From contig DATLLJ010000035.1 of NCBI GenBank assembly GCA_035537875.1, positions 29,358 through 93,357 of the forward strand: 64,000 bases of DNA, given 5' to 3'. The stretch is from Vicinamibacterales bacterium. Lineage in GTDB: Bacteria > Acidobacteriota > Vicinamibacteria > Vicinamibacterales > CAVVIG01. Below the pieces are notes generated by a model. The model searched no databases, was not told the DNA's origin, and saw nothing but the letters and a program-made list of their open reading frames with translations. Made by a program: the position numbers and the translations under genes. Of this stretch, positions 10,834 through 44,191 are shown piece after piece; the stretch's first letter is position 1; each line of letters begins with the position of its first letter.

Positions 10834-11067
10834 TCAGGAGCGGCCGAGCGCGTGTTGGACGGCCGCTAGCGCCTCTTCGTCGGCTGGAAAGCCCGCGGCG
10901 TCCTTTCTGGCGACGATCTGATCATCCACCCAGACGGTGAATTCACCCCGTCCGCCTTCGATGAGCTCAGCGTCGAGACCTGCCTGATCTTTGATGAGCG
11001 CGGCCACACGGACCGCGCGCGGCCGGTAATTTCAAACCTTGCAGTAACGAATGCGGATCTTGTTCAT
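10834..11067 (-). CDS. SelW/Rdx-family selenoprotein, in-frame UGA (Sec) at 11034-11032
   Basis: ATG 11067: MNKIRIRYCKV-UGA-NYRPRAVRVAALIKDQAGLDAELIEGGRGEFTVWVDDQIVARKDAAGFPADEEALAAVQHALGRS, stop at 10836-10834. The CxxU redox motif and the GxGxFxVxV core match the Rdx fold. A hairpin follows the UGA. Confidence 0.7.
10998..11018 (-). promoter_or_regulatory. Candidate bacterial SECIS hairpin
   Basis: On the mRNA, 16 nt after the U of UGA: GCGCGGUC-CGUGU-GGCCGCGC. This is an 8-bp stem (one G-U pair) with a 5-nt loop containing GU. Confidence 0.45.
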
Positions 11068-11087: not shown

Positions 11088-11381
11088 CTAGTCGTCCTTG
11101 TGCTTCTTGGTCTCGGCTGCATCCATGCGGTGCTCTTCGTGTTCCTTGAGCGCCGACTGGTATTCTTCGTACTCGCGCCCCTTGTGGACGGGCGCCCAGC
11201 GCTTCCTTTCGGCACGAGCCAGCGCCAGCGTGTGCTCCTTCGTGGTCATGCCGGCGGGCACCGAGAGCAGCCGCTCGAGATCCGCCCCGCTGCACGATGG
11301 GCACGTCGGCGCATCTCCGGGACGCACCAGAATCTCGAATTGCTGGCCACAGGCCAGGCACCGATACTCGTAGAGCGGCAT
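11088..11381 (-). CDS. FmdB-family CxxC_CxxC zinc-ribbon protein
   Basis: ATG 11381: MPLYEYRCLACGQQFEILV..APTCPSCSG, the typical FmdB regulatory zinc-ribbon N-terminus. The C-terminal tail is charged. Confidence 0.75.
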   Translation of the reverse strand: MPLYEYRCLACGQQFEILVRPGDAPTCPSCSGADLERLLSVPAGMTTKEHTLALARAERKRWAPVHKGREYEEYQSALKEHEEHRMDAAETKKHKDD

Positions 11382-15825: not shown

Positions 15826-18159
15826 GTGCGGGCAGGTACCCCCTGGGTCGCGGTCGCGACCGTATTCACGATGCTTGCCTCGCTGGCATCCGACTCGGCC
15901 GCAGCCCAGGACGAGGGCGCTCGTCCCGCTCCTGCTCCAGGCGTCACGAATCCTATAAGCCTCGAAGGTGTACAAGGCGGCCCGGTCGGCCCGGCGCCTC
16001 GCGACGGCGCTCGCCCTGCACGGCCGGCGCTCACACCCGTCCGCGCCCAGCAGGCGCCGTCGATTGACGGACGACTCGACGACGCCATCTGGCGAAGCGC
16101 GGCGCTCATCGACACCTTCGTTCAGGAAGAACCCATCGAAGGCGCGCCGGCGTCGGAGCAAACCGAGGTCCGCGTCGCGTACGACAGCGAGCGGCTGTAC
16201 ATCGGCATTGCAGCGCACTATGCCGACGTCAACCTGAGACGAGCGAACCGCTCCGATCGTGACCGGACCGACGAGGACGATACGGTGACGGTCTTCCTGG
16301 AGCCGTTCCTCGATTACATCCGCGGCTATTCGTTCTCGGTCAATGGTTACGGCGTGCAACGCGATTCGATGATCGTCGTGCAGAACGCGCAAAGTGACGC
16401 CGGCGGAAACACTTCCTTCAACGCCCTCTACTATTCAGGCGGCCAGCTCGTGGAAGACGGATGGACCGCCGAAATGGCCATCCCGTTCAAGAGTCTCAGG
16501 TACCCGGGCCGTGGCGCCGGGGAGGTCCATCGTTGGGGATTTCAGGTGAGGCGCACGATTCGGAGCAAGGACGAAAGCGCCGTCTGGTCCCCCGTCTCGC
16601 GCGCCGATCCGAACTTCCTCGGGCAGATCGGTCTGCTCACAGGGATGACCGATTTCTCGACCGAGCGGAACCTGGAACTCCTCCCGACCTTCACCGCCAT
16701 CCAGACGGGGACGCTCAACGCAACAACTGGAGAGTTCACGATCGACGATGTCGAAGAAGGTGGAGTGGATCTGAAGTACGGGATCAACTCGAACGTCACG
16801 TTCGACTTCACGTACAACCCCGATTTCTCGCAGATCGAATCCGACAACCAACAGATCGAGGTCAACCGGCGCTTTCCAATCAATTTCCCGGAGTTGCGGC
16901 CCTTCTTCCTCGAGGGCCGGGAAATCTACGAGATCCCTGGAGGATTCAGACCGGTCCAGACCCGGCGGATTGTCGACCCGCGCTACGCGGCGAAGCTCAC
17001 CGGAAAAATCAGCGCCCGCACGTCGCTCGGCCTCTTCTTTGCCGATGACGAAGCCCCTGGAAAAGTCGAGAGCTCGATCGATCCGGCCTACGGCCAGAAG
17101 GCGCAGAACGTGCTGGCGCGCGTGAAGTACGACCTCTATCGGAACGCACATGTCGGCGGGATCTTCACCGACCGAGAGTTCCTCGATGGTTACAGCCGGC
17201 TCGTGGGTTTCGATACCGCTCTGCCGATCGGTGTCAGCAAGAACTTCGGCCTCCGCTTTTACAAGAGCGAATCGCTGGCCAATAACGCCCGGGTCGGCGG
17301 ATGGGCGACGGAAAACACCTTCAGGCACAACGGCCGGAACCTGGGCTGGAGTCTCATTCACAACGCCATTTCGCCTCAGTTTGGCAGTCAATTGAGCTTC
17401 ATCGAGCGGACCGATCAGATACAGTCGATGCCGTCGATCAGCTATCGCTGGTATCCCGAGACATGGATCCGCAACTGGGGGCCCAACTTCGGCAACCCGC
17501 GTCTGTGGGACTTCAACGGCGTCCTCCAGAACGAAGACTACACTCCCCGCGTCAGCTTCTCCTTTGCCAAGAACATCACCCTCAATACGGGGTTCACACG
17601 GGCGATGGAGCGGTATCGCGACATCCCGTTCCACAAGAACACCTGGTCGATCTCAAGCAATGTGAACACGAGCCGGAAGATCTCCCTGTCGGCCAGCTTC
17701 GACAAAGGCGACGAGATCCGCTTTACCGTCAACCCGTATCTCGGGCGAAGCCGGGAATACGCCGCCACCGTCACGGCGCGACCGACGTCCCGCTTGCAGT
17801 CGGCGTTCAGAATCACCGCGAGCCGATTCATGGACCCCCGCAGCGGCAGCGATGAATTGGTGTTCAACGTCAAGATCCTGCGCTCGACGACAACCTACCA
17901 GTTCACCCCGCGTCTGCTCATACGGAACATCTGGGAGCTCAACACCGGGCAAGGCTCGAGGCATACGACGTTCGAGAACTTCCTGGTGACCTACCGCGTG
18001 AACAGCGGCACGGTGTTCTACGTGGGATACGACGACCGATTCCGCCAGGAGAGCACGGTCGAGGACCAGGTCATCGTCGACACATCCTATCGGCGTACGA
18101 ATCGGGCGATCTTCACCAAACTCAGCTACCTGTTCAGGCGGGGCGGGGCTGCCGAATAG
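15826..18159 (+). CDS. CBM9-like + DUF5916-type putative outer-membrane barrel protein, paralog 1
   Basis: GTG 15826 after AGGAGG (15814-15819). Signal peptide. APSIDGRLDDAIWRSAALIDTFVQEEP (CBM9/DOMON-like), then a long beta-rich region with NPDFSQIESD..RFP..PELRPFFLEGREIY. Confidence 0.8.
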   Translation: MRAGTPWVAVATVFTMLASLASDSAAAQDEGARPAPAPGVTNPISLEGVQGGPVGPAPRDGARPARPALTPVRAQQAPSIDGRLDDAIWRSAALIDTFVQEEPIEGAPASEQTEVRVAYDSERLYIGIAAHYADVNLRRANRSDRDRTDEDDTVTVFLEPFLDYIRGYSFSVNGYGVQRDSMIVVQNAQSDAGGNTSFNALYYSGGQLVEDGWTAEMAIPFKSLRYPGRGAGEVHRWGFQVRRTIRSKDESAVWSPVSRADPNFLGQIGLLTGMTDFSTERNLELLPTFTAIQTGTLNATTGEFTIDDVEEGGVDLKYGINSNVTFDFTYNPDFSQIESDNQQIEVNRRFPINFPELRPFFLEGREIYEIPGGFRPVQTRRIVDPRYAAKLTGKISARTSLGLFFADDEAPGKVESSIDPAYGQKAQNVLARVKYDLYRNAHVGGIFTDREFLDGYSRLVGFDTALPIGVSKNFGLRFYKSESLANNARVGGWATENTFRHNGRNLGWSLIHNAISPQFGSQLSFIERTDQIQSMPSISYRWYPETWIRNWGPNFGNPRLWDFNGVLQNEDYTPRVSFSFAKNITLNTGFTRAMERYRDIPFHKNTWSISSNVNTSRKISLSASFDKGDEIRFTVNPYLGRSREYAATVTARPTSRLQSAFRITASRFMDPRSGSDELVFNVKILRSTTTYQFTPRLLIRNIWELNTGQGSRHTTFENFLVTYRVNSGTVFYVGYDDRFRQESTVEDQVIVDTSYRRTNRAIFTKLSYLFRRGGAAE

Positions 18160-18307
18160 GCCTGCCGGACCGGCTGGGCCAGCCCCGAAAAACGTGGAGC
18201 AAGCGCCCCGACACTGATGTTAGAATGACCGCTCTGCCGAGCATAGAGCACCGCCCTCGAAGCGGCGAACCGGTCTCCTAGTTTCCATTTCTCCCGAGAA
18301 GAGAAGG

Positions 18308-20668
18308 ATGCTTTTGAACTTGAAGCCTGTGAGGCTCTGTCTTTCGTCGATCGCATTGGTGGCGCTGCTCGGCTCCTCCTCGTCCGCTCAGACACCAGCG
18401 ACGGCCTCGGGCGGCTCTCAACCTCAAGGCGAAGGGACAGGCCGGGGCAATCCGGGAACCCTGACCCTTCAAGGCGGCCAGGCGGGAGAGGTTCAGCAGG
18501 CACCGCGGTCCAGCGCGGCCGGCGGCCGACCGACGCTCACGGCCGTCCGTGCCGAGCAGGCACCGACGATCGACGGACGCCTGGACGATGCCATCTGGCG
18601 CAACGCCGCCCTGATCGACACGTTCGTGCAGGAAGAGCCGCTCGAAGGCGCCCCGGCGACGGAGAGAACCGAAGTGCGGGTCGCGTATGACAGCGATCAG
18701 CTCTATTTCGGCATCAGGGTGTATTACTCCGACATGAGCTTGATGAGGACGAACCGTTCGGACCGCGACAAGCTCGACAACGACGACACGGTCACGGTGT
18801 ACCTGGAGCCGTTTCTCGATTACCTCCGCGGCTACGCGTTCGCGGTGAACGGATATGGCGTGCAGCGCGACTCGATGGTCGTCGTGCAGAATGCGCAAAG
18901 TACCGCGAGCGGTGAGCTCTCGTTCAACGTGCTCTATTACTCGGGCGGACAGCTTGTCGAAGACGGGTGGACGGCGGAAATGGCCATCCCGTTCAAGAGC
19001 CTCCGCTACCCTGGGAAAGGCGCCGGAGAAACCCATCGCTGGGGCTTTCAGGTCCGGCGCGAGATCAAGAGCAAGGACGAAAAGGTCGTCTGGTCGCCGG
19101 TGTCGCGGAACAACTCGAACTTCCTCGGTCAGATCGGGCAGTTGACGGGAATGACCGATCTGTCGGTTCAGCGCAACTTCGAGCTGCTGCCGACGTTCAC
19201 CGCCGTGAATACCGGTGTGCTCAACACGTCAACAGGTGAGTTCGGGACTGACAATGCCACAGACGCCGGGATCGGTGCCAAGTACGGCATCACGTCGAAC
19301 CTGACCTTCGACTTCACTTACAATCCCGACTTCTCGCAGATCGAGTCCGACACCCAGCAGATCGAGATCAACCAGCGCTTCCCGCTCAATTACCCGGAGC
19401 TGCGACCGTTCTTTCTTGAAGGGCGCGAGATCTACGAGATTCCCGGTCGACCGCAGCCGGTGCAGACGCGCAAGATTGTCGACCCCAGGTACGGCGCCAA
19501 GCTGACAGGAAAAGTCGCACAGCGCTGGTCGGTCGGCATGTTCGTCGCCGACGACGAGGCGCCTGGCAAAGTGGACGACATCGCCAGCCCGGCATACGGA
19601 CAACGGGCGCAGAACGTGCTCGGCAGGGTCAAGTACGATTTGTACCGGAACTCGCACGTTGGCGTCATCTTCACCGACCGCGAGTTCCTCAACGACTTCA
19701 GCCGGCTCATCATGACGGACACGGGACTTCGCCTTGGCGAGACCGGGAATTTCGGGTGGCGGTTCTACAAGTCGAGCCAGGAGGAAGCCTCGATCCCGAA
19801 GCAAGGCTGGGCGACGGAAATGAGCATCCGACGGAACAGCCGGAACATCAACTGGGCCGTCATCGCCAATGCGATCTCACCCGAGTTCGGCAACGCGCTC
19901 AGCTTCGTGCAGCGCACCGACCAGATACAAATCATGGCGCCGCAGTTCTCCTACCAGTGGTACCCGGAGGGCTTGATCCGCAACTGGAGCGCCGGCTACA
20001 ACATGCCGCGACTCTACGATTTCGACAGTCACGAGCTGCTCGAGGCCAACTACCAGCCGAACGTGCGCTTCCAGTTCGCGAGGAACGTGCGCGTCGATGC
20101 GAGCGTCCTTCGGCAAATGGAGAGCTATCGTGGCATCGATTTCTGGAAGACGCGGTGGAACCTCTCGGGCAACGTCAATACGAGCCGCAAGATCTTGTTC
20201 TCCTACGGCGTGAGCGACGGAGATCAGATCCGCTTCGTCGCGAACCCCTTCCTGGGCAGGCTGCTCGATTACAACGTGTCGGCGACCTTCCGTCCGACCT
20301 CGCGCCTCGACTCGCGCCTGCAGATCGACGTCAACCGGTTCACCGACCCCGTGGAGCAGCGCCAGGAATTCCACGTGCGGATCCTCCGCTCGTCGACGAC
20401 CTACCAGTTCACGCCGCGGCTGTTGGTGCGCAACATCCTCGAGCTCAACACGGGAGCCGGCTCGAACCACACGCTCTTCGAGAACATCCTTCTGACGTAC
20501 CGCGTGAATTCCGGGACCGTCTTCTACTTCGGCTACGACGATCGCTTCAAGGAAGCCAACGCGATCAACGCCCAGCTGTTCTCGGATCCCGCCTACAAGC
20601 GCACGAATCGAGCCATCTTCACCAAGTTGCAGTACCTGTTCCGCAGCGGGGGCGGCGGCGGGGAGTAA
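18308..20668 (+). CDS. CBM9-like + DUF5916-type barrel protein, paralog 2
   Basis: Collinear with paralog 1 over its full length. Most positions are identical in the N-terminal block. Signal peptide ..LLGSSSSAQ. Confidence 0.8.
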   Translation: MLLNLKPVRLCLSSIALVALLGSSSSAQTPATASGGSQPQGEGTGRGNPGTLTLQGGQAGEVQQAPRSSAAGGRPTLTAVRAEQAPTIDGRLDDAIWRNAALIDTFVQEEPLEGAPATERTEVRVAYDSDQLYFGIRVYYSDMSLMRTNRSDRDKLDNDDTVTVYLEPFLDYLRGYAFAVNGYGVQRDSMVVVQNAQSTASGELSFNVLYYSGGQLVEDGWTAEMAIPFKSLRYPGKGAGETHRWGFQVRREIKSKDEKVVWSPVSRNNSNFLGQIGQLTGMTDLSVQRNFELLPTFTAVNTGVLNTSTGEFGTDNATDAGIGAKYGITSNLTFDFTYNPDFSQIESDTQQIEINQRFPLNYPELRPFFLEGREIYEIPGRPQPVQTRKIVDPRYGAKLTGKVAQRWSVGMFVADDEAPGKVDDIASPAYGQRAQNVLGRVKYDLYRNSHVGVIFTDREFLNDFSRLIMTDTGLRLGETGNFGWRFYKSSQEEASIPKQGWATEMSIRRNSRNINWAVIANAISPEFGNALSFVQRTDQIQIMAPQFSYQWYPEGLIRNWSAGYNMPRLYDFDSHELLEANYQPNVRFQFARNVRVDASVLRQMESYRGIDFWKTRWNLSGNVNTSRKILFSYGVSDGDQIRFVANPFLGRLLDYNVSATFRPTSRLDSRLQIDVNRFTDPVEQRQEFHVRILRSSTTYQFTPRLLVRNILELNTGAGSNHTLFENILLTYRVNSGTVFYFGYDDRFKEANAINAQLFSDPAYKRTNRAIFTKLQYLFRSGGGGGE

Positions 20669-20702
20669 GCATTAGCCCGACCAGGTTCAGGCGGGAGACA
20701 TC

Positions 20703-23003
20703 ATGGGCACAAAGGACGTCATACGCTTTCCCTTTGTGGTCGTCGTGTTGGCCCTGCTCGTGTTGTCGACGTCGACAGCCCTGGCCCAGAACGCGCCGGG
20801 AACGCTCGCCCTTCAGCCCACGCAGGGAGGGACCGAGCCGGCTCGTCCCGCGCCTGGCGCTCGACCAACCGTCACCGCTCTTCTCGCCGAACAGGCCCCC
20901 ACGATCGACGGCAGACTCGACGACGCGATCTGGCGCACGGCGGCGCTGATCGACACCTTTGTGCAGGAGGAACCAATCGAAGGCGCACCTGCCACGGAGC
21001 AGACCGAAGTGCGCGTTGCATTCGATCGCGAGACGCTGTTCTTCGGGATTCAAGTGCACTACTCCGACGTGAACTTGAGACGTGCCAACCGCTCCGATCG
21101 CGACAAGCTCGACAATGACGACACGGTCACAGTCACCCTCGAGCCGTTTCTGGACTATCTGCGCGGCTATTCCTTCTCCGTGAACGGGTACGGGGTGCAG
21201 AGCGATTCCATGATCGTCGTGCAGAACAATCAGAGCAGCGCCGGCGGCAATCTTTCGTTCAATGCGCTGTACTACTCGGGCGGGCAGCTATCTGAGGACG
21301 GATGGACAGCCGAGATCGGGATCCCCATCAAGAGCCTGCGCTATCCGAGCCGCAAAGCGGGCGAGCCGCATCGCTGGGGATTGCAGGTTCGACGCGAGAT
21401 CAAGAGCAGGGACGAATCCGATGTCTGGGCCCCCGTCTCGCGCAACAATCCCAATTACCTGGCTCAGATCGGCGTCCTGACGGGGATGACCGACTTCTCG
21501 ACGCAACGCAACTTCGAGCTGCTTCCGACCCTCACCGCAGTGTCGAGCACGCGGCTCAACCCGACGTCGGGCGAGTTCGTGGACGACACCTCCGGCGAAG
21601 GTGGAGTCGGCTTGAAGTACGGCATCAATTCGAATCTGACGTTCGACTTCACGTACAACCCCGACTTTTCCCAGATTGAATCGGAGACGCAGCAGATCGA
21701 CGTCAATCAGCGTTTCCCGCTGCAGTACCCCGAGCTGCGGCCCTTCTTCCTCGAAGGTCAGGAGATCTTCAACATCGTCGGCATGCCGCGTGCCGTGGAA
21801 ACCCGGAACATCGTTGACCCGCGCATCGGCGCCAAACTGAGCGGCAAGGTGGGCGATCGGTCGTCGATCGGTGTGCTGTTCGCGGACGACGAGGCCCCTG
21901 GCCGCACCGATCTTGAGACCGATCCCGCATTTGGCCGTCGCGCTCGAAGCGTGATCGCTCGGTACAAGTACGACTTGTACCGCAACGCGCACGTCGGCGG
22001 ATTGTTCACCGATCGCGAGTTCCTGAGCAATTACAGTCGGCTCGTCGCCTTCGACACGGCCCTCCCCTTCGCGGGGACCAGAAACATCGGGTACCGCTTC
22101 TTCAAATCCGAGCTCGAAGAGAACAACGCACGCAGGAGCGGCTGGGCCATGGAAGGGACGGTTCGACAGAATGCCCGAAACTTGAGCTGGGGGGCGGTCA
22201 CGACGTGGATGTCGCCGGAGTTCGCCAGTCGGCTCAGCTTCGTCCGCCGGGTGAACACCATCGAGAACCGGTACAACGTCGGCTACAAGTGGTACCCGGA
22301 GAGCTGGATCCGCAATTGGGGTCCTGGCTTCAACGTCGGCTGGCTGCACGACTACGACGGTATCCTCCAGAACCGCACCGACTGGAATCCCAGCGTCAGT
22401 TTCGTCTTCGACAAGAACATCACGCTCAACGCGAACGTCGCGCGCACCATGGAGCTGTATCGCGGCATCGAGTTCGTCAAGACGAACTGGACGGTATCGG
22501 GCAGCGTCAACACCAGCCGCAAAGTCCTCTTCTCGGCGGGCCTCACAAACGGGGACGAAATCCGGTTCATCGCGAACCCGTTTCTCGGCCGGTTGATGGA
22601 TTACAATGTGACCGCGACGTTCCGCCCGTTTTCGCGGTTGCAGTCGATCCTGAGAATGGACGGCAACCGTTTCCGGGATCCAGTCAACCAGGAGCAGGAG
22701 TTCCACGTCCGCATCTGGCGTTCGACGACCACTTACCAGTTCACCTCACGCTTGCTCGTCCGGAATATCTTCGAGTTGAACAGCGGAGAGGGATCGAACC
22801 ACACGTTGTTCGAGAACATCCTGTTGACGTATCGGGTGAACTCGGGCACCGTCTTCTACTTCGGTTACGACGATCGCTTCAAGGAGGGCGGGGCGATCAA
22901 CCCACAGCTGTTCTCCGATCCCACCTACCGCCGAACCAACCGAGCCGTATTTACCAAGCTCCAGTACCTCTTCAGGAGCGGTGGTACCGGCAGCGAGAGT
23001 TAG
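20703..23003 (+). CDS. CBM9-like + DUF5916-type barrel protein, paralog 3
   Basis: Collinear with paralogs 1 and 2. Starts 34 nt after paralog 2. Signal peptide ..STSTALAQ. Confidence 0.8.
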   Translation: MGTKDVIRFPFVVVVLALLVLSTSTALAQNAPGTLALQPTQGGTEPARPAPGARPTVTALLAEQAPTIDGRLDDAIWRTAALIDTFVQEEPIEGAPATEQTEVRVAFDRETLFFGIQVHYSDVNLRRANRSDRDKLDNDDTVTVTLEPFLDYLRGYSFSVNGYGVQSDSMIVVQNNQSSAGGNLSFNALYYSGGQLSEDGWTAEIGIPIKSLRYPSRKAGEPHRWGLQVRREIKSRDESDVWAPVSRNNPNYLAQIGVLTGMTDFSTQRNFELLPTLTAVSSTRLNPTSGEFVDDTSGEGGVGLKYGINSNLTFDFTYNPDFSQIESETQQIDVNQRFPLQYPELRPFFLEGQEIFNIVGMPRAVETRNIVDPRIGAKLSGKVGDRSSIGVLFADDEAPGRTDLETDPAFGRRARSVIARYKYDLYRNAHVGGLFTDREFLSNYSRLVAFDTALPFAGTRNIGYRFFKSELEENNARRSGWAMEGTVRQNARNLSWGAVTTWMSPEFASRLSFVRRVNTIENRYNVGYKWYPESWIRNWGPGFNVGWLHDYDGILQNRTDWNPSVSFVFDKNITLNANVARTMELYRGIEFVKTNWTVSGSVNTSRKVLFSAGLTNGDEIRFIANPFLGRLMDYNVTATFRPFSRLQSILRMDGNRFRDPVNQEQEFHVRIWRSTTTYQFTSRLLVRNIFELNSGEGSNHTLFENILLTYRVNSGTVFYFGYDDRFKEGGAINPQLFSDPTYRRTNRAVFTKLQYLFRSGGTGSES

Positions 23004-29156: not shown

Positions 29157-30647
29157 TCACACGTACTCGCGTTCCAGGCGCCGCGCGGACCGATACCGTG
29201 CGAACACCTCCTCGTCGCCCTCGAGACCGAGAATCGACCGGAGCCTCACTCCCCGGAAGGTATGCATCATCATCTCTATCGCGTGCCGCAGCACGAACAA
29301 GGGACTGTGGGTGAACGCTGCGGGCATGTGGCGCACCTTCATCCACCGTTCGGCGCGCCACCGGAGGAACTCGATTTCCGCGGCCGACAGATGCTCGCTG
29401 CGCACGACGGCTGTCGTGCCATCGTAATGACTCACATCATCGTCCACGATGAGGCCGCGCTCCCGGAACTGGCTCGTCATCGGCGTGCCGGGATACGGCG
29501 TCGGATGCTGGATGTACGGCCAGTCCACGTACCGGCGCGCAAAGTCGAGGTTTGCCTCGATGGACTCCCGGGTATCGTCCGGATTGCCGACGATCAAGCC
29601 ACCCACCACGTAGAGCCCGTGCCGATGGAGATGCTCGATCGCCTCGATGGTGGCGTTCTCCGTCACCCGTCCAGGGCCGCGGCTGGCATTCTTTGCGCGT
29701 GCCTTGAGGAACGCGAGATCCGCGTCGAGCACGTTCTCGATGCCGAGAAACACGTACCTGAAACGCGCGCGGCGCATCAGCGGGGCGAGCCTGGCGCCGT
29801 GCTGCGCCAGCGGTGATGTCATGGCCTGGACGACGTAGTCCACGTCGTTGAAACCGGCCTCGATGATCGCGCCGCACAGCGACTCGAACCGGCGGATATC
29901 GAGCGTGATGTTGTCATCGACGAGGAAAATCGACTTCGCGCCCCTTCCCCTCGCGTCGGCGATGTCGGCCAGCACCCGCTCGAGAGGATAGGCGTGAAAG
30001 TTTCTTCCACGCATCTCGATGATCGAACAGAAGCTGCAGTCGAACGTGCAGCCCCGAGAGGTTTCCACCACGTCGACCTGACGGCCCAGAAGCGTGTACC
30101 CCCTCAGCACGCGGGCGCGTCGATTGGGCAGCCGCGGAGCCTCGGTCGCCAGGCGCGCGATAGGCCGGTCAGGGTTGTGCGCGAGGCCCGCCGAAGTCCG
30201 GTACGTGAGACCCGCCACCCCTTCGACCGTCGATCGTGACTCGAGCGCCCGCAGCAGTTCGCACAACGTCTGCTCGCCCTCTCCCCGCACGATGTAGTCC
30301 ACCTCGGAGCACGGCGAATACGCGAGCGGCGCAAGACTTGGATCGTACCCCCCGACCACGATATGCGTGGAGGGCCGCAGGTCTCGAACGAGACGCGCGA
30401 TCTTGAAGGCCGTCTGGCGTTGAAATGTCATGACAGACAGCCCCACCACGTCGGGCTGCAGCTCCTGCATCAGGCGGCTCACGGTCTGAGGCACGCGCGA
30501 TTGAGCGAGCACGAGGTCGGCCACCGACACCTGATGGTGAGCGTCGACATTGCCGGCGAGCGACGCCAGTGCGCCATTTGGCATGCGCACGGCGACCGTG
30601 GGCATGTGCTCGAACGAGTCCGGCATCGAAAGCAGGAGCACGTTCAC
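29157..30647 (-). CDS. B12-binding-domain radical SAM protein (class B, DUF4070-like C-terminus)
   Basis: N-terminal B12-binding-like Rossmann region, then the CX3CX2C cluster SRGCTFDCSFCS. Confidence 0.9.
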   Translation of the reverse strand: MNVLLLSMPDSFEHMPTVAVRMPNGALASLAGNVDAHHQVSVADLVLAQSRVPQTVSRLMQELQPDVVGLSVMTFQRQTAFKIARLVRDLRPSTHIVVGGYDPSLAPLAYSPCSEVDYIVRGEGEQTLCELLRALESRSTVEGVAGLTYRTSAGLAHNPDRPIARLATEAPRLPNRRARVLRGYTLLGRQVDVVETSRGCTFDCSFCSIIEMRGRNFHAYPLERVLADIADARGRGAKSIFLVDDNITLDIRRFESLCGAIIEAGFNDVDYVVQAMTSPLAQHGARLAPLMRRARFRYVFLGIENVLDADLAFLKARAKNASRGPGRVTENATIEAIEHLHRHGLYVVGGLIVGNPDDTRESIEANLDFARRYVDWPYIQHPTPYPGTPMTSQFRERGLIVDDDVSHYDGTTAVVRSEHLSAAEIEFLRWRAERWMKVRHMPAAFTHSPLFVLRHAIEMMMHTFRGVRLRSILGLEGDEEVFARYRSARRLEREYV

Positions 30648-30754
30648 AGCGCCATTGTGCCACCAACGGAAGGTTTGGGAGCCAGCCGATGGGGAACCGT
30701 GTAAAGTATCGGACCGTCGGGCACTCGAGCTACTTGAAGCAGCGAGGTTTGAAG

Positions 30755-32647
30755 ATGAGCTCGCGAACGCTGGAGATCCGCGGCAATCTCGAGAAGACGT
30801 ACGAGGACCTGTTCACGCCGGAGGCGGTCGCCGCGCTCGAGGCGCTGGCCGGGCTGGACGCCGATCGCAAAGCGATCATGACCGCCCGCATCCACCGGCG
30901 CGCCGCGCGGGCCCGAGACAGGCAACCCATCACCTTTCTCGACCCTGAATCATCCATCCCCCGAACGGGCCTACGGGTCAAAGACGCTCGAAGCGGCAAC
31001 TTCGTCGGCAGCGAGATCCCCCGCGACCTCGAGCGCCAGTGGATTCAGGGCACCGGGCCGGCGGCCAGGCCTCATGCGCCTGTGGATCAAAGCATCCGCA
31101 ACATCGCGTACGCCCTGCTGTCGGGTGCTGATGGCTGGATGTTCGACGGCGAAGACGCGTTGGGACAGATATCGACCATGTCGTTGGACAACCAGCGAAA
31201 CCTGGCCCTGGCCATCCGGCGGGACCCGATCTTCATGACGGTCGCTGAACGCGTCGCTTCTGAAATGAACAAGTGGGCCCGCGAGTTCTTTGGGCGACCG
31301 ATCATCGATGACTGGGTCAAGCAGTTGGATTTCACGACGAAGATCTTCCGGGCGCGCGGGCTCCACCTCGACGACCGTCACGTGCGGCATGCCGGCGGCG
31401 CGGGCTTCTCGGCCTCCATCGTCGATGCCACCCTCTACATCGTCCACAACCATCGGCCGCTCAGGAACGCTGGAGCGTCGCTGGTCCTGTATCTGCCGAA
31501 GATTCAGACGGCCGAAGAAGCAGCGCTCTGGAAAGACATCCTCGAAGCGCTCGAGCAGCATCGTGGCCTTCCGAGCGGTTCGATCAAGGCGTACGTGCTC
31601 GTCGAGCAGCTCGAGGCGTGTTTTCAGCTGATGGAAATTCGCGCCGCGCTCGGCACGCATTTCGTCGGCTTCAACACGGGCCGCTGGGACTACATCAACA
31701 GCGTCTCGGACGCCATGGCTTGGGACGCCGCGTTCGTCAACCCCAACATCGACGCGGTCACGATGACGTACGGTTACATGCGGAACTACGAGGATCGGGT
31801 CAGGCGCGCGGTCAACACGCCCGACCGGGACGGACGCTACGCGCTATGGCAGGGCGGGATGGAACCGAACATCCCGGTCGGATCGGAAGCGGGCGTCGCA
31901 AACGGCATGAAACGGGCCGTCAGCGGGGCCGAACGCGAGCAGCGCGAAGGCGCGAGCGGCAAGTGGGTCGCCCATTGGAAGATGGTTCACATCGTGCGGC
32001 CGGTGTGGGAAAAAGCGGGCGAGAACAATCAACTGGGCAGGCAGTTCCCCCGCCTGACCTTCACCGCTGCCGATGCTGCCGGCCTCACGCTCATCGAATC
32101 GGCGCCCCGGACAATCCGCGGCGCCCGCGACCTGTTCAGCGTGGCCCTTCAGTACGGCAACGCCTTTCTGCAGGGTCTTCAGGCGGCCGCGCTCAAGCCC
32201 GCCGATTTCTTCGGCAACGACGACGTGCTCTATCTGATGGAGGATATGGCGACCGGTGAAATTCGACTCAGCATTCTGTGGGAATGGCTGCACAAGGGGG
32301 CATTGCTGACGGAAGCCGACGAGCAGAGCCACATGAAAGCAGGCGATCGGGTGACGGTCGATCTGTATCAGCGGCTCCTTGCCGAAGAGTACGAGAAGCT
32401 GCGTCAAGCCAGCAATCGGGACGTCCACGACATCTCGAAAGCTACCACGCTGCCGATTGCGCGTGAGATCGTCGAGACATACGTCCTCGACGCCTCGAAG
32501 CTGCCCTGGTACATCGACCTGCTCAACATCAACCTCGGCGACACCGACCTTCTCGAGGCGAGGAGGCGCATCCGGCTGCTCACCGATGCGTTTCACAAAG
32601 ACGGCACGAGGATTACGGAGAACCTCGACTTCGCAAAGGCCAGTTGA
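30755..32647 (+). CDS. Malate synthase family protein, atypical length (630 aa)
   Basis: ATG 30755 is chosen because the ORF from 30569 overlaps the radical SAM gene. GTHFVGFNTGRWDYINS is a near match to the malate synthase signature (..H..GLN.GRWDYIF). MFDGEDALGQ corresponds to the DFEDS site. Confidence 0.7.
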   Translation: MSSRTLEIRGNLEKTYEDLFTPEAVAALEALAGLDADRKAIMTARIHRRAARARDRQPITFLDPESSIPRTGLRVKDARSGNFVGSEIPRDLERQWIQGTGPAARPHAPVDQSIRNIAYALLSGADGWMFDGEDALGQISTMSLDNQRNLALAIRRDPIFMTVAERVASEMNKWAREFFGRPIIDDWVKQLDFTTKIFRARGLHLDDRHVRHAGGAGFSASIVDATLYIVHNHRPLRNAGASLVLYLPKIQTAEEAALWKDILEALEQHRGLPSGSIKAYVLVEQLEACFQLMEIRAALGTHFVGFNTGRWDYINSVSDAMAWDAAFVNPNIDAVTMTYGYMRNYEDRVRRAVNTPDRDGRYALWQGGMEPNIPVGSEAGVANGMKRAVSGAEREQREGASGKWVAHWKMVHIVRPVWEKAGENNQLGRQFPRLTFTAADAAGLTLIESAPRTIRGARDLFSVALQYGNAFLQGLQAAALKPADFFGNDDVLYLMEDMATGEIRLSILWEWLHKGALLTEADEQSHMKAGDRVTVDLYQRLLAEEYEKLRQASNRDVHDISKATTLPIAREIVETYVLDASKLPWYIDLLNINLGDTDLLEARRRIRLLTDAFHKDGTRITENLDFAKAS

Positions 32648-37199: not shown

Positions 37200-38201
37200 A
37201 TGAGCCTACCCCCACTCCCCACCACCGTGACCGGCAGCTACTCGATGCCCGAGTGGCTGAAGCGGGCGAAGAACGATTACCTGCAGCGGCGCGTGAGCCG
37301 CCACGACCTGGAGGAGATGCACGACGCCGTCCGCAAGGGCGCGATCAAGGACCAGGAAGTGGCCGGCGTGGACGTCATCTCAGACGGCGAACTGCAGCGG
37401 GACAACATGATCGACTACTTCGCCGAACGTCTGCCTGGCGTGCAGATCGATCTGGGCTCCAAGCGCTTCTACTACGATTTCTACGACAGCGCGGTCCGGT
37501 CGAAGCTGGCCACCGGCGCGCTCGGCCTGGTCGAAGACGCCCGATTCCTGCGCCGATTCACCGATCGGCCTACGAAGGTGACGATTTCCGGTCCGCATAC
37601 TCTCGTCAAGCGTATTCAGAACCAGTACTACCCTTCGGAAGAAGCCTTCGCGCTGGAACTGGCGCGCGTCCTGAACCTGGAGCTGCGTGAGCTGGCGCGA
37701 GCCGGCGTGACCGACCTGCAGATCGACGAGCCCTACTATTCTGGTTTTCCCGAGGATCTGCCGTGGGCCGTCCGCGCCGTCAACGCGATGGTGGATTCGG
37801 TGGACGCTCATCTCACGCTCCACATCTGTTACGGCAACCGGTACGGAAAGCCGTCTTGGGAAGGCAGCTACCGGTACCTCTTTCCGACGATAGGCGAGGC
37901 CAAGGTGCACGCGATCTCGCTCGAGTTCGCACGGCGCGGCGACGAGGACCTGCAGCTGTTCGAGCAGTTCAACGTGCCCTTCAAGGTCGGCCTCGGCGTC
38001 ATCGACGTCAAGACTCACGACGTGGAGCCTGCGGCCGTCGTCGGCGACCGAATCCGCCGCGCGCTCAAGATTCTTCCGGCCGAACGCCTCATCATCAATC
38101 CCGACTGCGGGCTCGTGCATCTGCCCCGCGAGGTGGCGTTCATGAAGTTGTGCGCGATGGTGGAAGGCACGCGGCTCGTGCGGCAGGAGCTTGCCCGGTG
38201 A
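37200..38201 (+). CDS. Short cobalamin-independent methionine-synthase-like protein (MetE C-terminal domain only, core-MetE type)
   Basis: TGSYSMPEWL, Zn-ligand motifs LHICYGN and NPDCGL, acidic SLEFAR. Only about 333 aa, against about 750 aa for full-length MetE. Confidence 0.8.
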   Translation: MSLPPLPTTVTGSYSMPEWLKRAKNDYLQRRVSRHDLEEMHDAVRKGAIKDQEVAGVDVISDGELQRDNMIDYFAERLPGVQIDLGSKRFYYDFYDSAVRSKLATGALGLVEDARFLRRFTDRPTKVTISGPHTLVKRIQNQYYPSEEAFALELARVLNLELRELARAGVTDLQIDEPYYSGFPEDLPWAVRAVNAMVDSVDAHLTLHICYGNRYGKPSWEGSYRYLFPTIGEAKVHAISLEFARRGDEDLQLFEQFNVPFKVGLGVIDVKTHDVEPAAVVGDRIRRALKILPAERLIINPDCGLVHLPREVAFMKLCAMVEGTRLVRQELAR

Positions 38202-39670
38202 CCAACCACCTCGCCGACGCCCTGAACAGTCGGCGATTCTGTTACGTCGTCGAGCTCGTGGCATCGGCCCTCAAGCGCGAGGCGCAGGTCCTGGAGATCG
38301 GCGCCAGGCTGGCGACCGTGCCGGAAATCGTCGCGGGCAGCGTGACCAGTTATGCCGGCGGACGCTTCGGACAGGATCCCGTCCGCGTAGCCACCGCCGT
38401 GCGAGCGCGCGGGTTGACGCCCAACGTCCACCTGACCTGCGTCTACAGCGACCGAACGAGCATCCACAAAACGCTCAAGGCCCTCAACGCCCTCGAGCTC
38501 TACAACGTGTTCGCCCTGACGGGTGACTACCCGAAGCAGGATCAAACCAAACCGATCTTCGACCTTGATTCCGTGCAGTTGATTGAGTTGATCGCGCGGC
38601 TCCGCGAGGATCAGGGTATCCCGTTTCATATTTCCGTGGCGGTATCGCCATTCAAGTACGCACGCGAAGACTGCCTGTACCAGTATCTGAAGCTCGAAAA
38701 GAAAGTCGCGGCTGGCGCGAACGTCGCCATCACGCAGGTCGGGTGGGACGCCCGGAAGTTCGCCGAGTTGAAGCGTTACCTGGACGACCGCGGAATGGAC
38801 GTGCCTCTGCTGGGCAACGTCTACGTGCTGGGGAAGCGCGCCGCCGAGAAGATGGCCGGCGGGTCGCCGCCGGGATGCTGGACTTCCCCGGAACTCGTCG
38901 AGCGGATTCGCAGGGAAGCCGAGGCACCGGACGGCGGGCTGGAAGCGCGGCTCGAGCGTGCCGCGCAGGCCGTGGCGGTGCTGAAGGGACTTGGCTATGC
39001 GGGCGCGTACATAGGGGGGACACACGACGCCGACCAGCTGACGCGGATCATCGCCCGTGCGCGGGAGCTGGAAACGCGCTGGGAGGAGTGCGCCGCCGAA
39101 CTCCACTTCGGACGGGCAGATGGTTTCTACGTCTACGATTCCCCGAAGCCGAGAAGCCGACGGCTGCCAATGGTGGCACGAGTGCTCGACGTCACCGGCC
39201 AGCTGGCGCCGGTTACCCGGGACACGTGGCTTCGTCGGCTGCTCGAGTCGTTGTCGGCGTGGGTCGACCGACGGCCGCTCCTCGCCAGGTGGACCGAACG
39301 CTTCGAGTACGCCATCAAACGGCCCGTCTTCGGATGCCAGGCCTGCGGGAACTGCGTGCTGGGCCACATGGAATACGTGTGCCCGCAAACCTGTCCCAAG
39401 CAGATGCGCAACGGGCCCTGCGGCGGCACGCTGCACACACGCTGCGAAGTGATCGATCAGGAGTGCATCTGGGTGTCGGTGTATCAGCGGGCCGAAGCCG
39501 CCGAGCGCGTGCCCGAGTTGAAGACGTTCATTCCGGCGCCCGATCGCGCTCTGCAGGGGACGAGCTCGTGGATCAACTATTTCCTGGGCCGGGACCGCCG
39601 TCCGGCCGGGGATGCGGCCAAGGCGCGCCGGCCGCCGGTGCAGGAAACCCTGCCGGCGCGCCGATCGTGA
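38198..39670 (+). CDS. metF: Methylenetetrahydrofolate reductase (MetF) fused to a Cys-rich MetV-type (MTHFR_C) domain
   Basis: GTG 38198 overlaps the upstream TGA (GTGA). MetF-like TIM-barrel part (VELV..NVHLTC..ALTGDYPK). C-terminal FGCQACGNCVLGHMEYVCPQTCPKQMRNGPCGG. Confidence 0.8.
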   Translation: MTNHLADALNSRRFCYVVELVASALKREAQVLEIGARLATVPEIVAGSVTSYAGGRFGQDPVRVATAVRARGLTPNVHLTCVYSDRTSIHKTLKALNALELYNVFALTGDYPKQDQTKPIFDLDSVQLIELIARLREDQGIPFHISVAVSPFKYAREDCLYQYLKLEKKVAAGANVAITQVGWDARKFAELKRYLDDRGMDVPLLGNVYVLGKRAAEKMAGGSPPGCWTSPELVERIRREAEAPDGGLEARLERAAQAVAVLKGLGYAGAYIGGTHDADQLTRIIARARELETRWEECAAELHFGRADGFYVYDSPKPRSRRLPMVARVLDVTGQLAPVTRDTWLRRLLESLSAWVDRRPLLARWTERFEYAIKRPVFGCQACGNCVLGHMEYVCPQTCPKQMRNGPCGGTLHTRCEVIDQECIWVSVYQRAEAAERVPELKTFIPAPDRALQGTSSWINYFLGRDRRPAGDAAKARRPPVQETLPARRS

Positions 39671-39737
39671 CGCGGCTGCCACGGGAAAGTGTTACGCTCT
39701 TGGCCTTTCTCGCGACACCCAGAGGAGGTTACCAGCC

Positions 39738-41132
39738 GTGAGCCACAAGAATCTGGACGAGGTCATCCAAGCTGCCGGCAATCCGGTGCAGATGCTGCGG
39801 AATTCTCAATTGGGCCCCTATGTGTATCCGGTGGTGCCGTCGGAGTTTTCGAACTGGAGAGACGAGCAGCGGGCATGGAAGGAGACCTGCGTGCTGTTCA
39901 ACCAGTCGTACCACATGGCAGACATGTGGATTGAGGGCCCTGACGCGATCAAACTGCTGTCGGCCACCGGTATCAACAGCTTCGAGAACTTCCCGGTCAA
40001 CAAGGCCAAGCAGTTCGTCGGGTGCAACTACGATGGCTTCGTGATCGGTGACGCAATCCTTTTTCATCTGGACAAGAACTCACTGGTGCTGGTCGGCCGC
40101 CCTTCCATTCACAACTGGGTGCAGTACCACGCCGAGACTGGCGGGTACAAGGTGTCCCTGTCACGCGACGAACGATCGATCGCTCGAGACGTCCCGATCG
40201 TCCGGCGGCTCTACCGCTATCAGATCCAGGGCCCGAACGCCTCCCAGGTGCTGAACAAGCTGAACGGGGGGCCGATGCCCGAGATCAAATTCTTCAACCT
40301 GGGAGAAATCACCATCGCGGGACGCAAGGTCCGCGCGCTGCGTCACGGCATGGCGGGCGCCCCAGGGCTCGAAATCTGGGGACCCCACGAGGAACGCGAG
40401 GAGATTCGCGCGGCGATCGTCGAAGCTGGCGAATCGTTCGGACTGCGACAGGTCGGCGCGAGGGCATACGCGACCAACACGCTCGAATCGGGGTGGATTC
40501 CGTCGCCGATGCCGGCGGTGTACTCCGGCGAGAAGATGAAAGCCTACCGCCAGTGGCTGCCTGCGAAGGGCTACGAAGCCACGGCGTCCCTTGGCGGCAG
40601 CTTCTACTCGAACAACATCGAGGACTACTACCTCACCCCCTGGGACCTCGGCTACGGCTTCATGGTCAAGTTCGACCACGACTTTACCGGACGCGAGGCG
40701 CTCGAGAACGTTGCGAAGAACCCACGTCGCAAGAAGGTCACGCTCGCCTGGAACGCCGAGGATGTCACGCGCGCCATCGGATCGATGTTCCAGAAGGGCG
40801 ACGTCGTCAAGTTCATCGATCTCCCGCTGACGAATTACGCGTCGTTGTCGTACGACAAGGTCCTGAAGGGCGGGAAGATGATCGGGGTCTCCACGTTCAG
40901 CAGCTACAGCTACAACGAGCGGTCGATGCTCTCCCTGGCGATCCTGGATACCGAGTACAGCGAGGTCGGCACCGAAGTGACGTTCGTGTGGGGCGAAGAA
41001 GGCGGCGGGTCGTCGAAGCCAACGGTCGAACGCCACCGGCAAATCGAAATCCGTGCGACAGTGGGTCCCATCCCCTATGCTCAGCAGGCACGGGAAACGT
41101 ACGCCGAAGGGTGGCGCACCGTCCAGAAGTGA
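39738..41132 (+). CDS. GcvT-family tetrahydrofolate-dependent aryl O-demethylase (LigM/DesA-like)
   Basis: AGAGGAGG RBS 9 nt before GTG 39738. 464 aa. YVYPVVPSEFSNWRDEQRAW, RHGMAGAPGLEIWGP, ESGWIPSP, KAYRQWLP and KKVTLAW match my recollection of the LigM family. Not checked by alignment. Confidence 0.75.
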   Translation: MSHKNLDEVIQAAGNPVQMLRNSQLGPYVYPVVPSEFSNWRDEQRAWKETCVLFNQSYHMADMWIEGPDAIKLLSATGINSFENFPVNKAKQFVGCNYDGFVIGDAILFHLDKNSLVLVGRPSIHNWVQYHAETGGYKVSLSRDERSIARDVPIVRRLYRYQIQGPNASQVLNKLNGGPMPEIKFFNLGEITIAGRKVRALRHGMAGAPGLEIWGPHEEREEIRAAIVEAGESFGLRQVGARAYATNTLESGWIPSPMPAVYSGEKMKAYRQWLPAKGYEATASLGGSFYSNNIEDYYLTPWDLGYGFMVKFDHDFTGREALENVAKNPRRKKVTLAWNAEDVTRAIGSMFQKGDVVKFIDLPLTNYASLSYDKVLKGGKMIGVSTFSSYSYNERSMLSLAILDTEYSEVGTEVTFVWGEEGGGSSKPTVERHRQIEIRATVGPIPYAQQARETYAEGWRTVQK

Positions 41133-43343: not shown

Positions 43344-43483
43344 CGATGCATCCCGACACCTGCTGGGTGACCCGCTGGCTCGCGACAGACCGCCGTTCTG
43401 CCGCCCACCGGGCAAGTTTTCTGAAGGCTTAGACGAGCGAGGGGTGTAACCGGTTCGGTCCGCCGGCGAGGGCCCTACACCTC

Positions 43484-44191
43484 CTACTTGCCGCAGCTCT
43501 CGATCTCGTCGAACAGGCGGGGCGAGAGTCCAATCTCCGGGGCGCGCAGACGATGCTCCTGGCCCTTCTCGATTGCAAAGGCGATTCGAAAGCCCTGGGC
43601 TCGTAAGCTGTCGGCCTGCTTCTGCATCGCCGACAGCCAACCGGTGTCGCGATCGCCCACGTGCATGTAGACGCAGAGCGATTTCAGAGCCGCGGCGGGT
43701 TGTCCCTCCAGCAGGCCCGGATAACCGGTGACGGTCGTGAAGTAGCTGGGGAACTTCGCGGCGACGTGGAACGCGCTGATGCCGCCGTTCGAGTGGCCGG
43801 CGACATGGAGCTTGCCGCCTCGCGCCTTGTAGTCGCGGAGAATCTGGTCGAGAAACTCGGGGAAGATCCGGTCCGCATCTTCGAAGAACAGGCTGCCGTT
43901 CGGGGTGCCCGGACTGATCACGACGTAGCCGCGGCGCTCGGCTTCCTCCCGCCAGTCGGTGTTCAACGTGCTCTCGGCCCCCCGCAGCTGCTGCGCTCCA
44001 CCGGTGAACACGAGAATGACAGGATACGACCGCGCGGGCTCGTACCCCGTCGGCAGCACCACCTTGTAGGTCACCTGCAGGCCACCGAACTTGCCGGTCC
44101 GTTCGACGAGTTCAGCCGAGGCCGGCGACGCAAGGCCGCAGAGTACAACGAGGATCAGCAGGCACGTGGCACCTAGCGGTGAAGGCATCAT
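43484..44191 (-). CDS. Secreted alpha/beta-hydrolase (esterase / dienelactone-hydrolase-like)
   Basis: Signal peptide. Nucleophile elbow GHSNGG. Confidence 0.8.
   Translation of the reverse strand: MMPSPLGATCLLILVVLCGLASPASAELVERTGKFGGLQVTYKVVLPTGYEPARSYPVILVFTGGAQQLRGAESTLNTDWREEAERRGYVVISPGTPNGSLFFEDADRIFPEFLDQILRDYKARGGKLHVAGHSNGGISAFHVAAKFPSYFTTVTGYPGLLEGQPAAALKSLCVYMHVGDRDTGWLSAMQKQADSLRAQGFRIAFAIEKGQEHRLRAPEIGLSPRLFDEIESCGK

Follow-up and report, generated by a model that had tools for sequence, protein, structure and literature searches.

The question raised by this locus is whether the TGA at 11034-11032, on the minus strand of the window (the whole stretch of 64,000 nucleotides analysed here), ends a short reading frame or encodes selenocysteine (Sec) within a longer gene. 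The frame is opened by an ATG at 11067-11065 and reads MNKIRIRYCKV (11 sense codons) up to this TGA, after which 65 further sense codons (NYRPRAVRVAALIKDQAGLDAELIEGGRGEFTVWVDDQIVARKDAAGFPADEEALAAVQHALGRS) lead to its own stop, a TGA at 10836-10834; all of these elements, as given in the original prediction, are present in the sequence. We conclude with high confidence that 11067-10834 is one gene, which encodes a genuine Sec-containing SelW-like protein and carries its own SECIS element. The comparisons made here establish the family membership, the conservation of the UGA, its correspondence to a Cys in homologues, the presence of a conserved and co-varying hairpin, and the use of UGA as a stop otherwise. 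The features of the locus are collected in Table 1.

The ORF list of the window had been described as containing only the first 11 codons of this gene, as the tail of a 168-aa ORF, and nothing for the rest. The former is correct, but a 57-aa ORF exists downstream, starting at GTG 11007, and is under the default 60-aa listing threshold.

Table 1. Coordinates of the predicted selenoprotein gene, its elements and the adjacent upstream gene (window positions)
Feature	Positions	Strand	Evidence
SelW-like (Rdx family) selenoprotein CDS, complete (predicted)	10834..11067	-	77 residues, Sec at position 12; translation, Pfam Rdx, conservation in 47 loci
Cys9 codon TGC, first residue of the C-x-x-U redox motif	11041..11043	-	47 relatives: TGC 38, TGT 7, TGA 2
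In-frame UGA, predicted to be read as selenocysteine (U12)	11032..11034	-	TGA in 47/47 aligned loci; opposite the second CxxC cysteine of solved Rdx proteins and Cys-form homologues
Putative SECIS hairpin, 8-bp stem GCGCGGUC/GGCCGCGC, 5-nt apical loop CGUGU at 11010-11006	10998..11018	-	Covariation, invariant loop G, absence in 5 unselected Cys forms
GTG, Val21 of the full protein and false start of the 57-aa 'hypothetical protein'	11005..11007	-	Junction of hairpin loop and 3' arm; ORF 10834..11007
FmdB-family zinc-ribbon gene, all-Cys form (CxxC twice)	11088..11381	-	Pfam Zn_ribbon_8 56 bits, TIGR02605 56.5 bits; context only, not part of the element

Family membership and the position of the UGA

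With Cys substituted for the UGA, the 77-residue product scores 44.8 bits with the Pfam Rdx family (PF10262), whose gathering score is 22.6. Residues 3-70 are matched to profile positions 1-72 of 74, the UGA thus lying inside the match, and the membership in the Rdx family that had been claimed for this frame is thereby borne out. Two NCBIfam models also align end to end with the protein: NF041051 (SelTWH_Campy), an equivalog model for another lineage, over residues 4-70 with a score of 63.6 (cutoff 88), and TIGR02174 (CXXU_selWTH) over residues 4-71 with 33.8, a marginal miss of the curated cutoff of 34.2. Because these scores are under the curated cutoffs, the NCBI pipeline would not name the protein from either model, and we do not file it under them; the sub-cutoff scores probably contribute to the protein being missed by that pipeline.

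A sequence search of the PDB retrieved MIEN1/C17orf37 (2LJK, E = 8e-7), SAV_2001 (3DEX) and Atu0228 (2FA8). Each of them has a CxxC motif at the end of its first beta-strand whose first Cys is matched by C9 and whose second Cys by the UGA position, with YCKV(U)NY aligned to YCEPCGF in 2LJK, YCTQCRW in 3DEX and YCTQCNW in 2FA8. A Cys is found opposite the UGA also in the 14 full-length CxxC representative clusters described below, so the UGA does align to Cys in homologues, a point that had been set out as a check of the original prediction. From the homology to these solved structures, the protein is predicted to adopt a thioredoxin-like fold.

Conservation of the UGA and mis-annotation of related genes

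When one genome per GTDB species was scanned, 48 loci with 42-74% protein identity were obtained, distributed over Acidobacteriota (Vicinamibacterales, Pyrinomonadales, Blastocatellia), Myxococcota, Desulfobacterota, Acidimicrobiia and others. Of the genomes, a Vicinamibacterales MAG (74% identity) and a syntenic Acidobacteriota MAG match most closely. Every locus that covers the N-terminus has an in-frame stop exactly at the CxxU position, preceded by IR[YFH]Cxx and followed by NYxPRAARVAA. In the alignment of the window with 46 of the related loci the codon at this position is TGA in all 47 sequences. Neither another stop codon (TAA or TAG) nor a sense codon is seen there, and all 47 show conserved protein before and after it; nowhere among them do homologues terminate at this position without conservation downstream. 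At the Cys9 codon (Table 1) the change between TGC and TGT is synonymous, which indicates that the Cys is kept, and the two codons of the 'x' positions vary freely.

The invariant TGA, together with the two-sided conservation, excludes a pseudogene or a sequencing error. Such an origin, with a Cys codon (TGC/TGT) mutated or misread to TGA in a dead gene, would require a change of a single base, full-length CxxC homologues do exist, and no Sec machinery is seen within the 64-kb window. Its probability is nevertheless practically nil, given that the TGA recurs in 47 independent genomes from several phyla, that identities of 42-74% exclude copies of a single contaminating sequence, that the identical or 98%-identical fragment is found in independent JGI and ENA assemblies, and that a co-varying hairpin is located at SECIS distance.

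Elsewhere in the window TGA acts as a stop. It ends 11 of the 16 Pfam-supported or syntenic genes, the selenoprotein gene included, and no other internal stops are found in these genes. As TGA is the usual stop in this organism, the recoding is specific to the UGA at 11034-11032 and does not reflect a reassigned code. A GC3 scan of the window for other read-through TGAs gave 79 candidates, comparable to off-frame noise, and did not recover the true gene; at 64% GC this approach is uninformative.

The conservation of the UGA is hidden in the protein databases. A search of about 5.8 billion proteins retrieved 123 relatives, almost all of 54-66 aa, which is the length of the post-UGA fragment. 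When the exact 65-aa post-UGA segment was compared with 1.84 billion cluster representatives (E<=1e-3), 149 clusters were obtained: 106 consist of fragments of <=70 aa without the redox motif, 14 are full-length CxxC forms, 7 appear as 'CxxW', 1 appears as 'WxxW', and 21 are other. At the DNA level, each 'W' in the one CxxW entry and in the WxxW entry that were read proved to be a TGA to which the wrong translation table had been applied. Thus, about 71% of the related clusters (106/149) are truncated at the UGA and 8 more have it translated as Trp, which substantiates the claim that gene callers miss such genes. The start codon chosen by the gene callers itself sits within the putative SECIS hairpin. 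For the locus studied here, the JGI and ENA gene calls (on an identical locus in sample 3300038441 and on a 98%-identical locus in the 137-kb contig ERZ27256789 k141_2350669, respectively) give only the 57-aa fragment, with no Pfam match. The source database gives the entry P0067 the name 'Rdx family', although the 57-aa fragment has no precomputed Pfam match.

These gene calls bear on the possibility that the 57-aa ORF from GTG 11007 is the real product, the 11 upstream codons and the UGA being a leader peptide or non-coding. Both public calls choose this ORF and its GTG is conserved in relatives, but the conservation of the GTG arises because it lies inside the hairpin and encodes a conserved Val. 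The Rdx profile, whose match starts at residue 3, needs the N-terminal strand with CxxU; the amino acids encoded upstream are conserved while their codons change synonymously; and the fragment, which has no precomputed Pfam match, would be without the redox motif and hence without the active site of the family. We regard the 57-aa product as extremely improbable. With the full-length reading, what is now a 57-aa 'hypothetical protein' very probably becomes a correctly delimited selenoprotein gene in this genome.

The 'CxxW' entries could also be taken to mean that the UGA is read as a standard amino acid, be it Trp, Cys or Gly, by near-cognate decoding or under a reassigned code, and the Sec machinery of the host is itself deduced from the gene. 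However, the 'W' residues read at the DNA level come from the wrong table, TGA is a terminator in this window, also of the selenoprotein gene, and a documented selenoprotein family has its catalytic Cys/Sec at this position (PMC1088965, PMC2398784). Moreover, the UGA is accompanied by a SECIS-type hairpin that unselected Cys forms lack, as described below. Decoding as a standard amino acid is therefore highly improbable, and selenocysteine remains the preferred reading of this UGA.

A conserved and co-varying hairpin downstream of the UGA

The hairpin that had been predicted downstream of the UGA is present at 11018-10998 and is conserved. Its distance needs a correction: the sixteen nt that had been given is obtained when counting starts at the U, and there are 13 nt between the A of the UGA and the first stem base. 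The UGA is 21 nt from the loop. The published consensus for bacterial SECIS elements has a G in the first two loop positions, at 16-37 nt from the UGA (PMC13188914), and as judged from its sequence the hairpin fits this consensus in stem, loop G and UGA spacing.

Taken alone, the sequence of the window would not single out this structure. Its z-score of -1.25 is unremarkable, and the MFE fold is a slipped register with loop CGGUC, at -17.6 kcal/mol vs -14.0 kcal/mol for the register with loop CGUGU; the slipped register likewise meets the bSECIS rules. It requires, however, the GCGCGCGG repeat, which few of the sequences have, and most relatives fold to the CGUGU-loop register unaided. No Rfam family matches the window at gathering thresholds.

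It is only in the comparison of relatives that the pattern goes far beyond chance, with TGA in 47/47 and covariation in the hairpin. We tested the hairpin in a codon-anchored alignment of the 47 sequences, with columns 32-39 paired with columns 45-52. In this register 86% of the cells are paired and the covariation score is 0.274, vs 0.141 in shuffles, none of 500 of which reached 0.274; slid registers all have lower covariation, the best at 0.132. The pair 36-48 (11014/11002) joins the wobble bases of two Ala codons and is CG in 21 sequences, UG in 11, UA in 9 and GC in 6, so that it is paired in 47/47 with no mismatch, a result equalled by 0 of 200000 permutations. Pair 33-51 alternates between C:G (17) and G:C (9), and pair 39-45 between C:G (44) and U:A (3). 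The conserved stem is 6-8 bp long. The consensus proposed by RNAalifold itself, a 5-bp register displaced by 3 columns whose covariation term is -0.1, was rejected because the covariation score of the hairpin named here is double that of any slid register.

The loop is equally constrained. It reads CGUGU in 23 of the 47 sequences, CGGGU in 12, CGUGC in 5, CGGGC and AGUUU in 2 each, and AGUUC, AGGCU and GGUGC in 1 each, which corresponds to C-G-K-G-Y in 42/47. The second position is G in all 47, followed by U or G, and this G is kept even where the Arg codon has changed to Ser (AGU) or Gly (GGU). The distance from the UGA to the loop is 21 nt in 37 sequences, the window among them, and 24 nt in 10. 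The proposal that this hairpin is a bacterial SECIS thus gains support from a register that is conserved and co-varying and that agrees with the bSECIS consensus (PMC13188914).

As the hairpin is written in coding sequence, its conservation could follow from that of the peptide. Homologues in which Sec is replaced by Cys provide a control, and we compared Cys-form DNA from 8 of the 14 CxxC representative clusters, 3 of them chosen for the PRAARVA peptide and 5 unselected. The five unselected loci have 2-3 of 6 pairs at the homologous positions, vs about 5.7 of 6 in the Sec forms, and no homologous hairpin. The three loci chosen for keeping the PRAARVA peptide retain 5 of 6 core pairs, but the choice is circular and n=3 is uninformative. 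One Cys form (L069) encodes P-R-A-A-S-L-A, as do three Sec forms (L021, L023, L058), with the codons AGC CTC GCC in place of AGT TTG GCG in the Sec forms, which abolishes the pairing. The Cys form that keeps the peptide without the pairing, and the unselected Cys forms without a hairpin, indicate that selection acts on the hairpin as RNA and that it goes with the UGA. For the three CxxC loci that retain it, recent conversion from Sec to Cys, with the hairpin left as a relic, is the best reading; their retention of it also means that the hairpin by itself is no proof of current SECIS function.

These data also allow us to weigh the reading in which the gene encodes a selenoprotein, but the hairpin is a by-product of the GC-rich RAxRVAA codons, or the slipped CGGUC register is the functional one. 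The single-sequence z-score, the greater stability in the window of an alternative that satisfies the bSECIS rules, and the persistence of the hairpin in three CxxC forms are all in line with it. It is contradicted by the wobble-to-wobble covariation, in which four types of pair occur and none of the 47 sequences has a mismatch, by the folding of most relatives to the CGUGU-loop register, the slipped one being limited to the few with the GCGCGCGG repeat, by the retention of G41 through amino-acid changes, and by the Cys form that keeps the peptide and not the pairing. We therefore consider it very unlikely, and retain the CGUGU-loop hairpin as the candidate SECIS of this gene.

In some relatives both positions of the redox motif are TGA (U-x-x-U). 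Two in-frame TGAs are found in two genomic relatives (L036, L040) and in a database entry (L063), as well as in three distinct metagenomic sequences (L053, L058 and L059, the last identical to L061). The metagenomic cases were found with a targeted DNA pattern, for which six other matches are due to chance. The U-x-x-U relatives have conserved N-termini and a hairpin as in the window gene, and all five of those scanned (L036, L040, L053, L058, L059; U replaced by C) pass the Pfam Rdx threshold, with 43.6-71 bits. The reviews and the GOS paper describe UxxU only in Prx-like proteins, a mercuric-reductase-like protein and the FmdB family, not in SelW-like proteins. This variant is absent from the window, whose gene is of the CxxU form.

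Genomic context, proposed mechanism and comparison with known systems

The FmdB-type gene at 11381-11088 is located 20 nt upstream on the same strand, where the original prediction had placed it, and is identified by its Zn_ribbon_8 and TIGR02605 matches. No promoter-like or terminator-like site was found between the FmdB and selenoprotein genes, and their co-transcription is possible. The adjacency is shared only with L002, the closest syntenic relative, in which several genes are syntenic, and a functional operon with FmdB was rejected on these grounds. The neighbours comprise, besides the FmdB zinc ribbon, a metallophosphoesterase, two metallo-beta-lactamase-fold proteins, cytochromes c, a P450, methyltransferases and CBM9/DUF5916 paralogues. 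None of them is linked to selenium, nor did Pfam searches of ten large window ORFs give anything related to it, and clustering across loci, which is dominated by spurious GC-rich off-frame ORFs, gave no neighbour conserved across phyla. Synteny across the loci is only lineage-local, as with ligA in Myxococcota.

With E. coli SelA, SelB and SelD as tblastn queries, no selA, selB or selD was found in the 64-kb window or near the gene in related loci. The window contains no tRNA, and no tRNA-Sec is present near the gene in the 53 loci scanned. Because so little sequence per genome is covered, these results say nothing either way about the machinery. Acidobacteria have been recorded with selenoproteins (PMC1794560), and from the gene itself we infer the Sec-decoding capacity of the host. 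The finding predicts a full Sec-insertion machinery, and a need for selenium, in this uncultured Acidobacteriota organism.

The features described above suggest the following mechanism. When the ribosome arrives at the UGA at 11034-11032, the mRNA hairpin at 11018-10998, which may bind SelB, would recruit SelB loaded with selenocysteyl-tRNA(Sec), and selenocysteine would be inserted at position 12 in place of termination. The hairpin would then be unwound and translated as Arg-Ala-Val-Arg-Val-Ala-Ala-Leu. The mature 77-residue thioredoxin-fold protein, with its Cys9-Lys-Val-Sec12 motif, would most likely be a small thiol/selenol oxidoreductase, cycling through an intramolecular Cys9-Sec12 selenenylsulfide. 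The insertion of Sec in this host, the redox chemistry and the physiological substrate are the steps of this scheme that we infer.

The statement that SelW-like selenoproteins are known in bacteria agrees with the literature, in which SelW-like CxxU proteins are a catalogued bacterial selenoprotein family (PMC1088965, PMC2398784, PMC9312934, PMC13188914), whose early catalogues drew on marine metagenomes and anaerobes. Reviews of 2022 and 2026 list SelW-like proteins under PF10262, with the CxxU motif and one Sec (PMC9312934, PMC13188914). The family is among the most abundant and longest-known bacterial selenoprotein families, described since about 2004-2005. The window gene is an unannotated but ordinary CxxU member of it, and it leaves selenoprotein biology unchanged, since the family, the motif and the SECIS type have already been described.

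More tentatively, the relatives may form a large, mostly soil, systematically mis-annotated SelW-like clade, in which the SECIS is written into the segment P-R-A-A-R-V-A-A and probably dictates it, and which includes a UxxU subform with a potential diselenide, where a single hairpin would have to act on two UGAs, 21 and 30 nt before its loop. We put this forward as a plausible proposal that falls somewhat short of being probable.

The prototype SECIS elements of E. coli fdhF and fdnG are likewise hairpins within the ORF, just 3' of the UGA and with a small apical loop. The fdhF element carries a bulged U, which has no counterpart in the window hairpin. There is no sequence similarity between the E. 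coli elements and the hairpin described here, whose stem is a short perfect GC-rich helix of 6-8 bp with a 5-nt loop C-G-K-G-Y. In both cases the loop presents a G followed by U or G (consensus from PMC13188914).

The solved Cys-form Rdx proteins, human MIEN1/C17orf37 (2LJK), Streptomyces SAV_2001 (3DEX), Agrobacterium Atu0228 (2FA8) and the Vibrio 'selenoprotein W-related' protein (2P0G), are homologous to the window protein over about 70 residues. They differ from it in having Cys in place of Sec, no in-frame UGA or SECIS and a length of 105-117 aa, and they are without the PRAARVAA segment that encodes the hairpin in the window gene.

The closest likeness is to the bacterial SelW-like family (PF10262 Rdx, formerly PF05169), with which the window gene has in common the domain, a length of about 75-80 aa, an N-terminal C-x-x-U motif with one Sec, an in-CDS SECIS just downstream with a G in a small apical loop, and few Cys homologues. 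The function of the family is presumed to be redox, and likewise that of the window gene. There is no essential difference between the two; the copy in the window comes from an uncultured soil-type lineage of Acidobacteriota and had been left unannotated.

False start codon and Sec UGA read as Trp

The annotated 57-aa 'hypothetical protein' of the window begins at a GTG that lies within the SECIS, and an equivalent GTG is found in the relatives in A1, the codon-anchored alignment of the window with 46 related loci (Table). The triplet is kept because the loop and 3' arm of the SECIS (CGU GUG GCN) contain it, and the false start codon chosen by gene callers therefore comes from the SECIS itself, which also explains why the database fragments are uniform in length, at 54-58 aa.

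Full-length SelW-like entries with Trp at the Sec UGA also exist in public protein collections, seven of them as CxxW (P0125, P0166, P0204, P0246, P0247, P0261 and P0267) and one as WxxW (P0203). The Trp apparently results from gene calling with a table in which UGA encodes Trp. In both loci checked at the DNA level, L064 and L063, the codon is TGA, and 'CxxW' SelW-like entries of this kind are hidden selenoproteins.

Table. Coordinates of the features discussed.
Feature	Location	Strand	Remark
GTG start of 57-aa ORF	window 11005-11007	-	A1 columns 43-45 in relatives
FmdB-family gene	window 11088-11381	-	TIGR02605; upstream of SelW-like gene
Three tandem paralogues	window 15826-23003	+	about 770-790 aa each
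B12-binding radical SAM gene	window 29157-30647	-	
Malate-synthase-like gene	window 30569-32647	+	
MTHFR-like gene	window 37763-41132	+	
Fourth paralogue copy	window 41163-43640	-	
UxxU SelW-like gene	L036:3022-3087		
UxxU SelW-like gene	L040:1700-1765		
UxxU SelW-like gene	L053:1179-1222	+	
UxxU SelW-like gene	L058:1784-1827	-	
UxxU SelW-like gene	L059:6907-6950	-	identical to L061:5253-5296 (+)
UxxU SelW-like gene	L063:58-288		TGA confirmed
SelW-like gene, Trp at Sec UGA in database	L064:480-707		TGA confirmed
CxxC form with PRAARVA and hairpin	L065:301-543		
CxxC form with PRAARVA and hairpin	L066:301-558		
CxxC form with PRAARVA and hairpin	L067:301-558		
Second small hairpin, example	L040:1712-1727		

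UxxU and CxxC relatives and the hairpin

Six distinct SelW-like/Rdx sequences, from divergent lineages, carry two in-frame TGAs, one for each position of the redox motif (U-x-x-U), as in MKRITIRH-U-VR-U-GFQPRAARAAAAL. With U replaced by C, all five that were scanned (L036, L040, L053, L058 and L059; L063 was left out) pass the Pfam Rdx threshold, at 43.6-71 bits. A single conserved hairpin is present in all six, and would have to serve both UGAs, whose distances to the loop are 21 and 30 nt.

The SECIS-type hairpin is also retained in three Cys (CxxC) forms that keep the PRAARVA peptide, and in one of them (L067) the two wobble bases even form a new pair, A:U. The hairpin is most likely a relic of recent Sec-to-Cys conversion, while a second role for it is possible in these three sequences.

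Many relatives have a second small hairpin, GAGGCU-AUC-AGCCUC, which the window lacks. The GA of the Sec UGA forms its first two bases, and the main hairpin follows immediately on its 3' side; its carriers are the A1 sequences from Myxococcota together with L021, L023, L024, L036 and L040. Possibly this hairpin extends the SECIS as a lower stem in certain lineages.

Gene neighbourhood and known selenoproteins

Elsewhere in the window, the three tandem paralogues have syntenic counterparts in L052 that bear CBM9_1 and DUF5916 domains, both of which were found by direct scan in the fourth copy; this is a local gene-family expansion. The MTHFR-like gene has a DUF5981 C-terminal domain and overlaps the start of a GcvT-like aminomethyltransferase. 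Together with the radical SAM and malate-synthase-like genes, these may form a one-carbon or methyl-transfer cluster, which has no relation to the SelW-like selenoprotein.

The pairing of FmdB and SelW-like genes was found only in L002, the closest syntenic relative. The selenoprotein reviews consulted give SelW-like proteins only as CxxU, with one Sec (PMC9312934, PMC13188914). The 2026 review (PMC13188914) counts FmdB among the UxxU selenoprotein families, for some metagenomic organisms; the FmdB protein of the window is all-Cys (CLAC ... CPSC).
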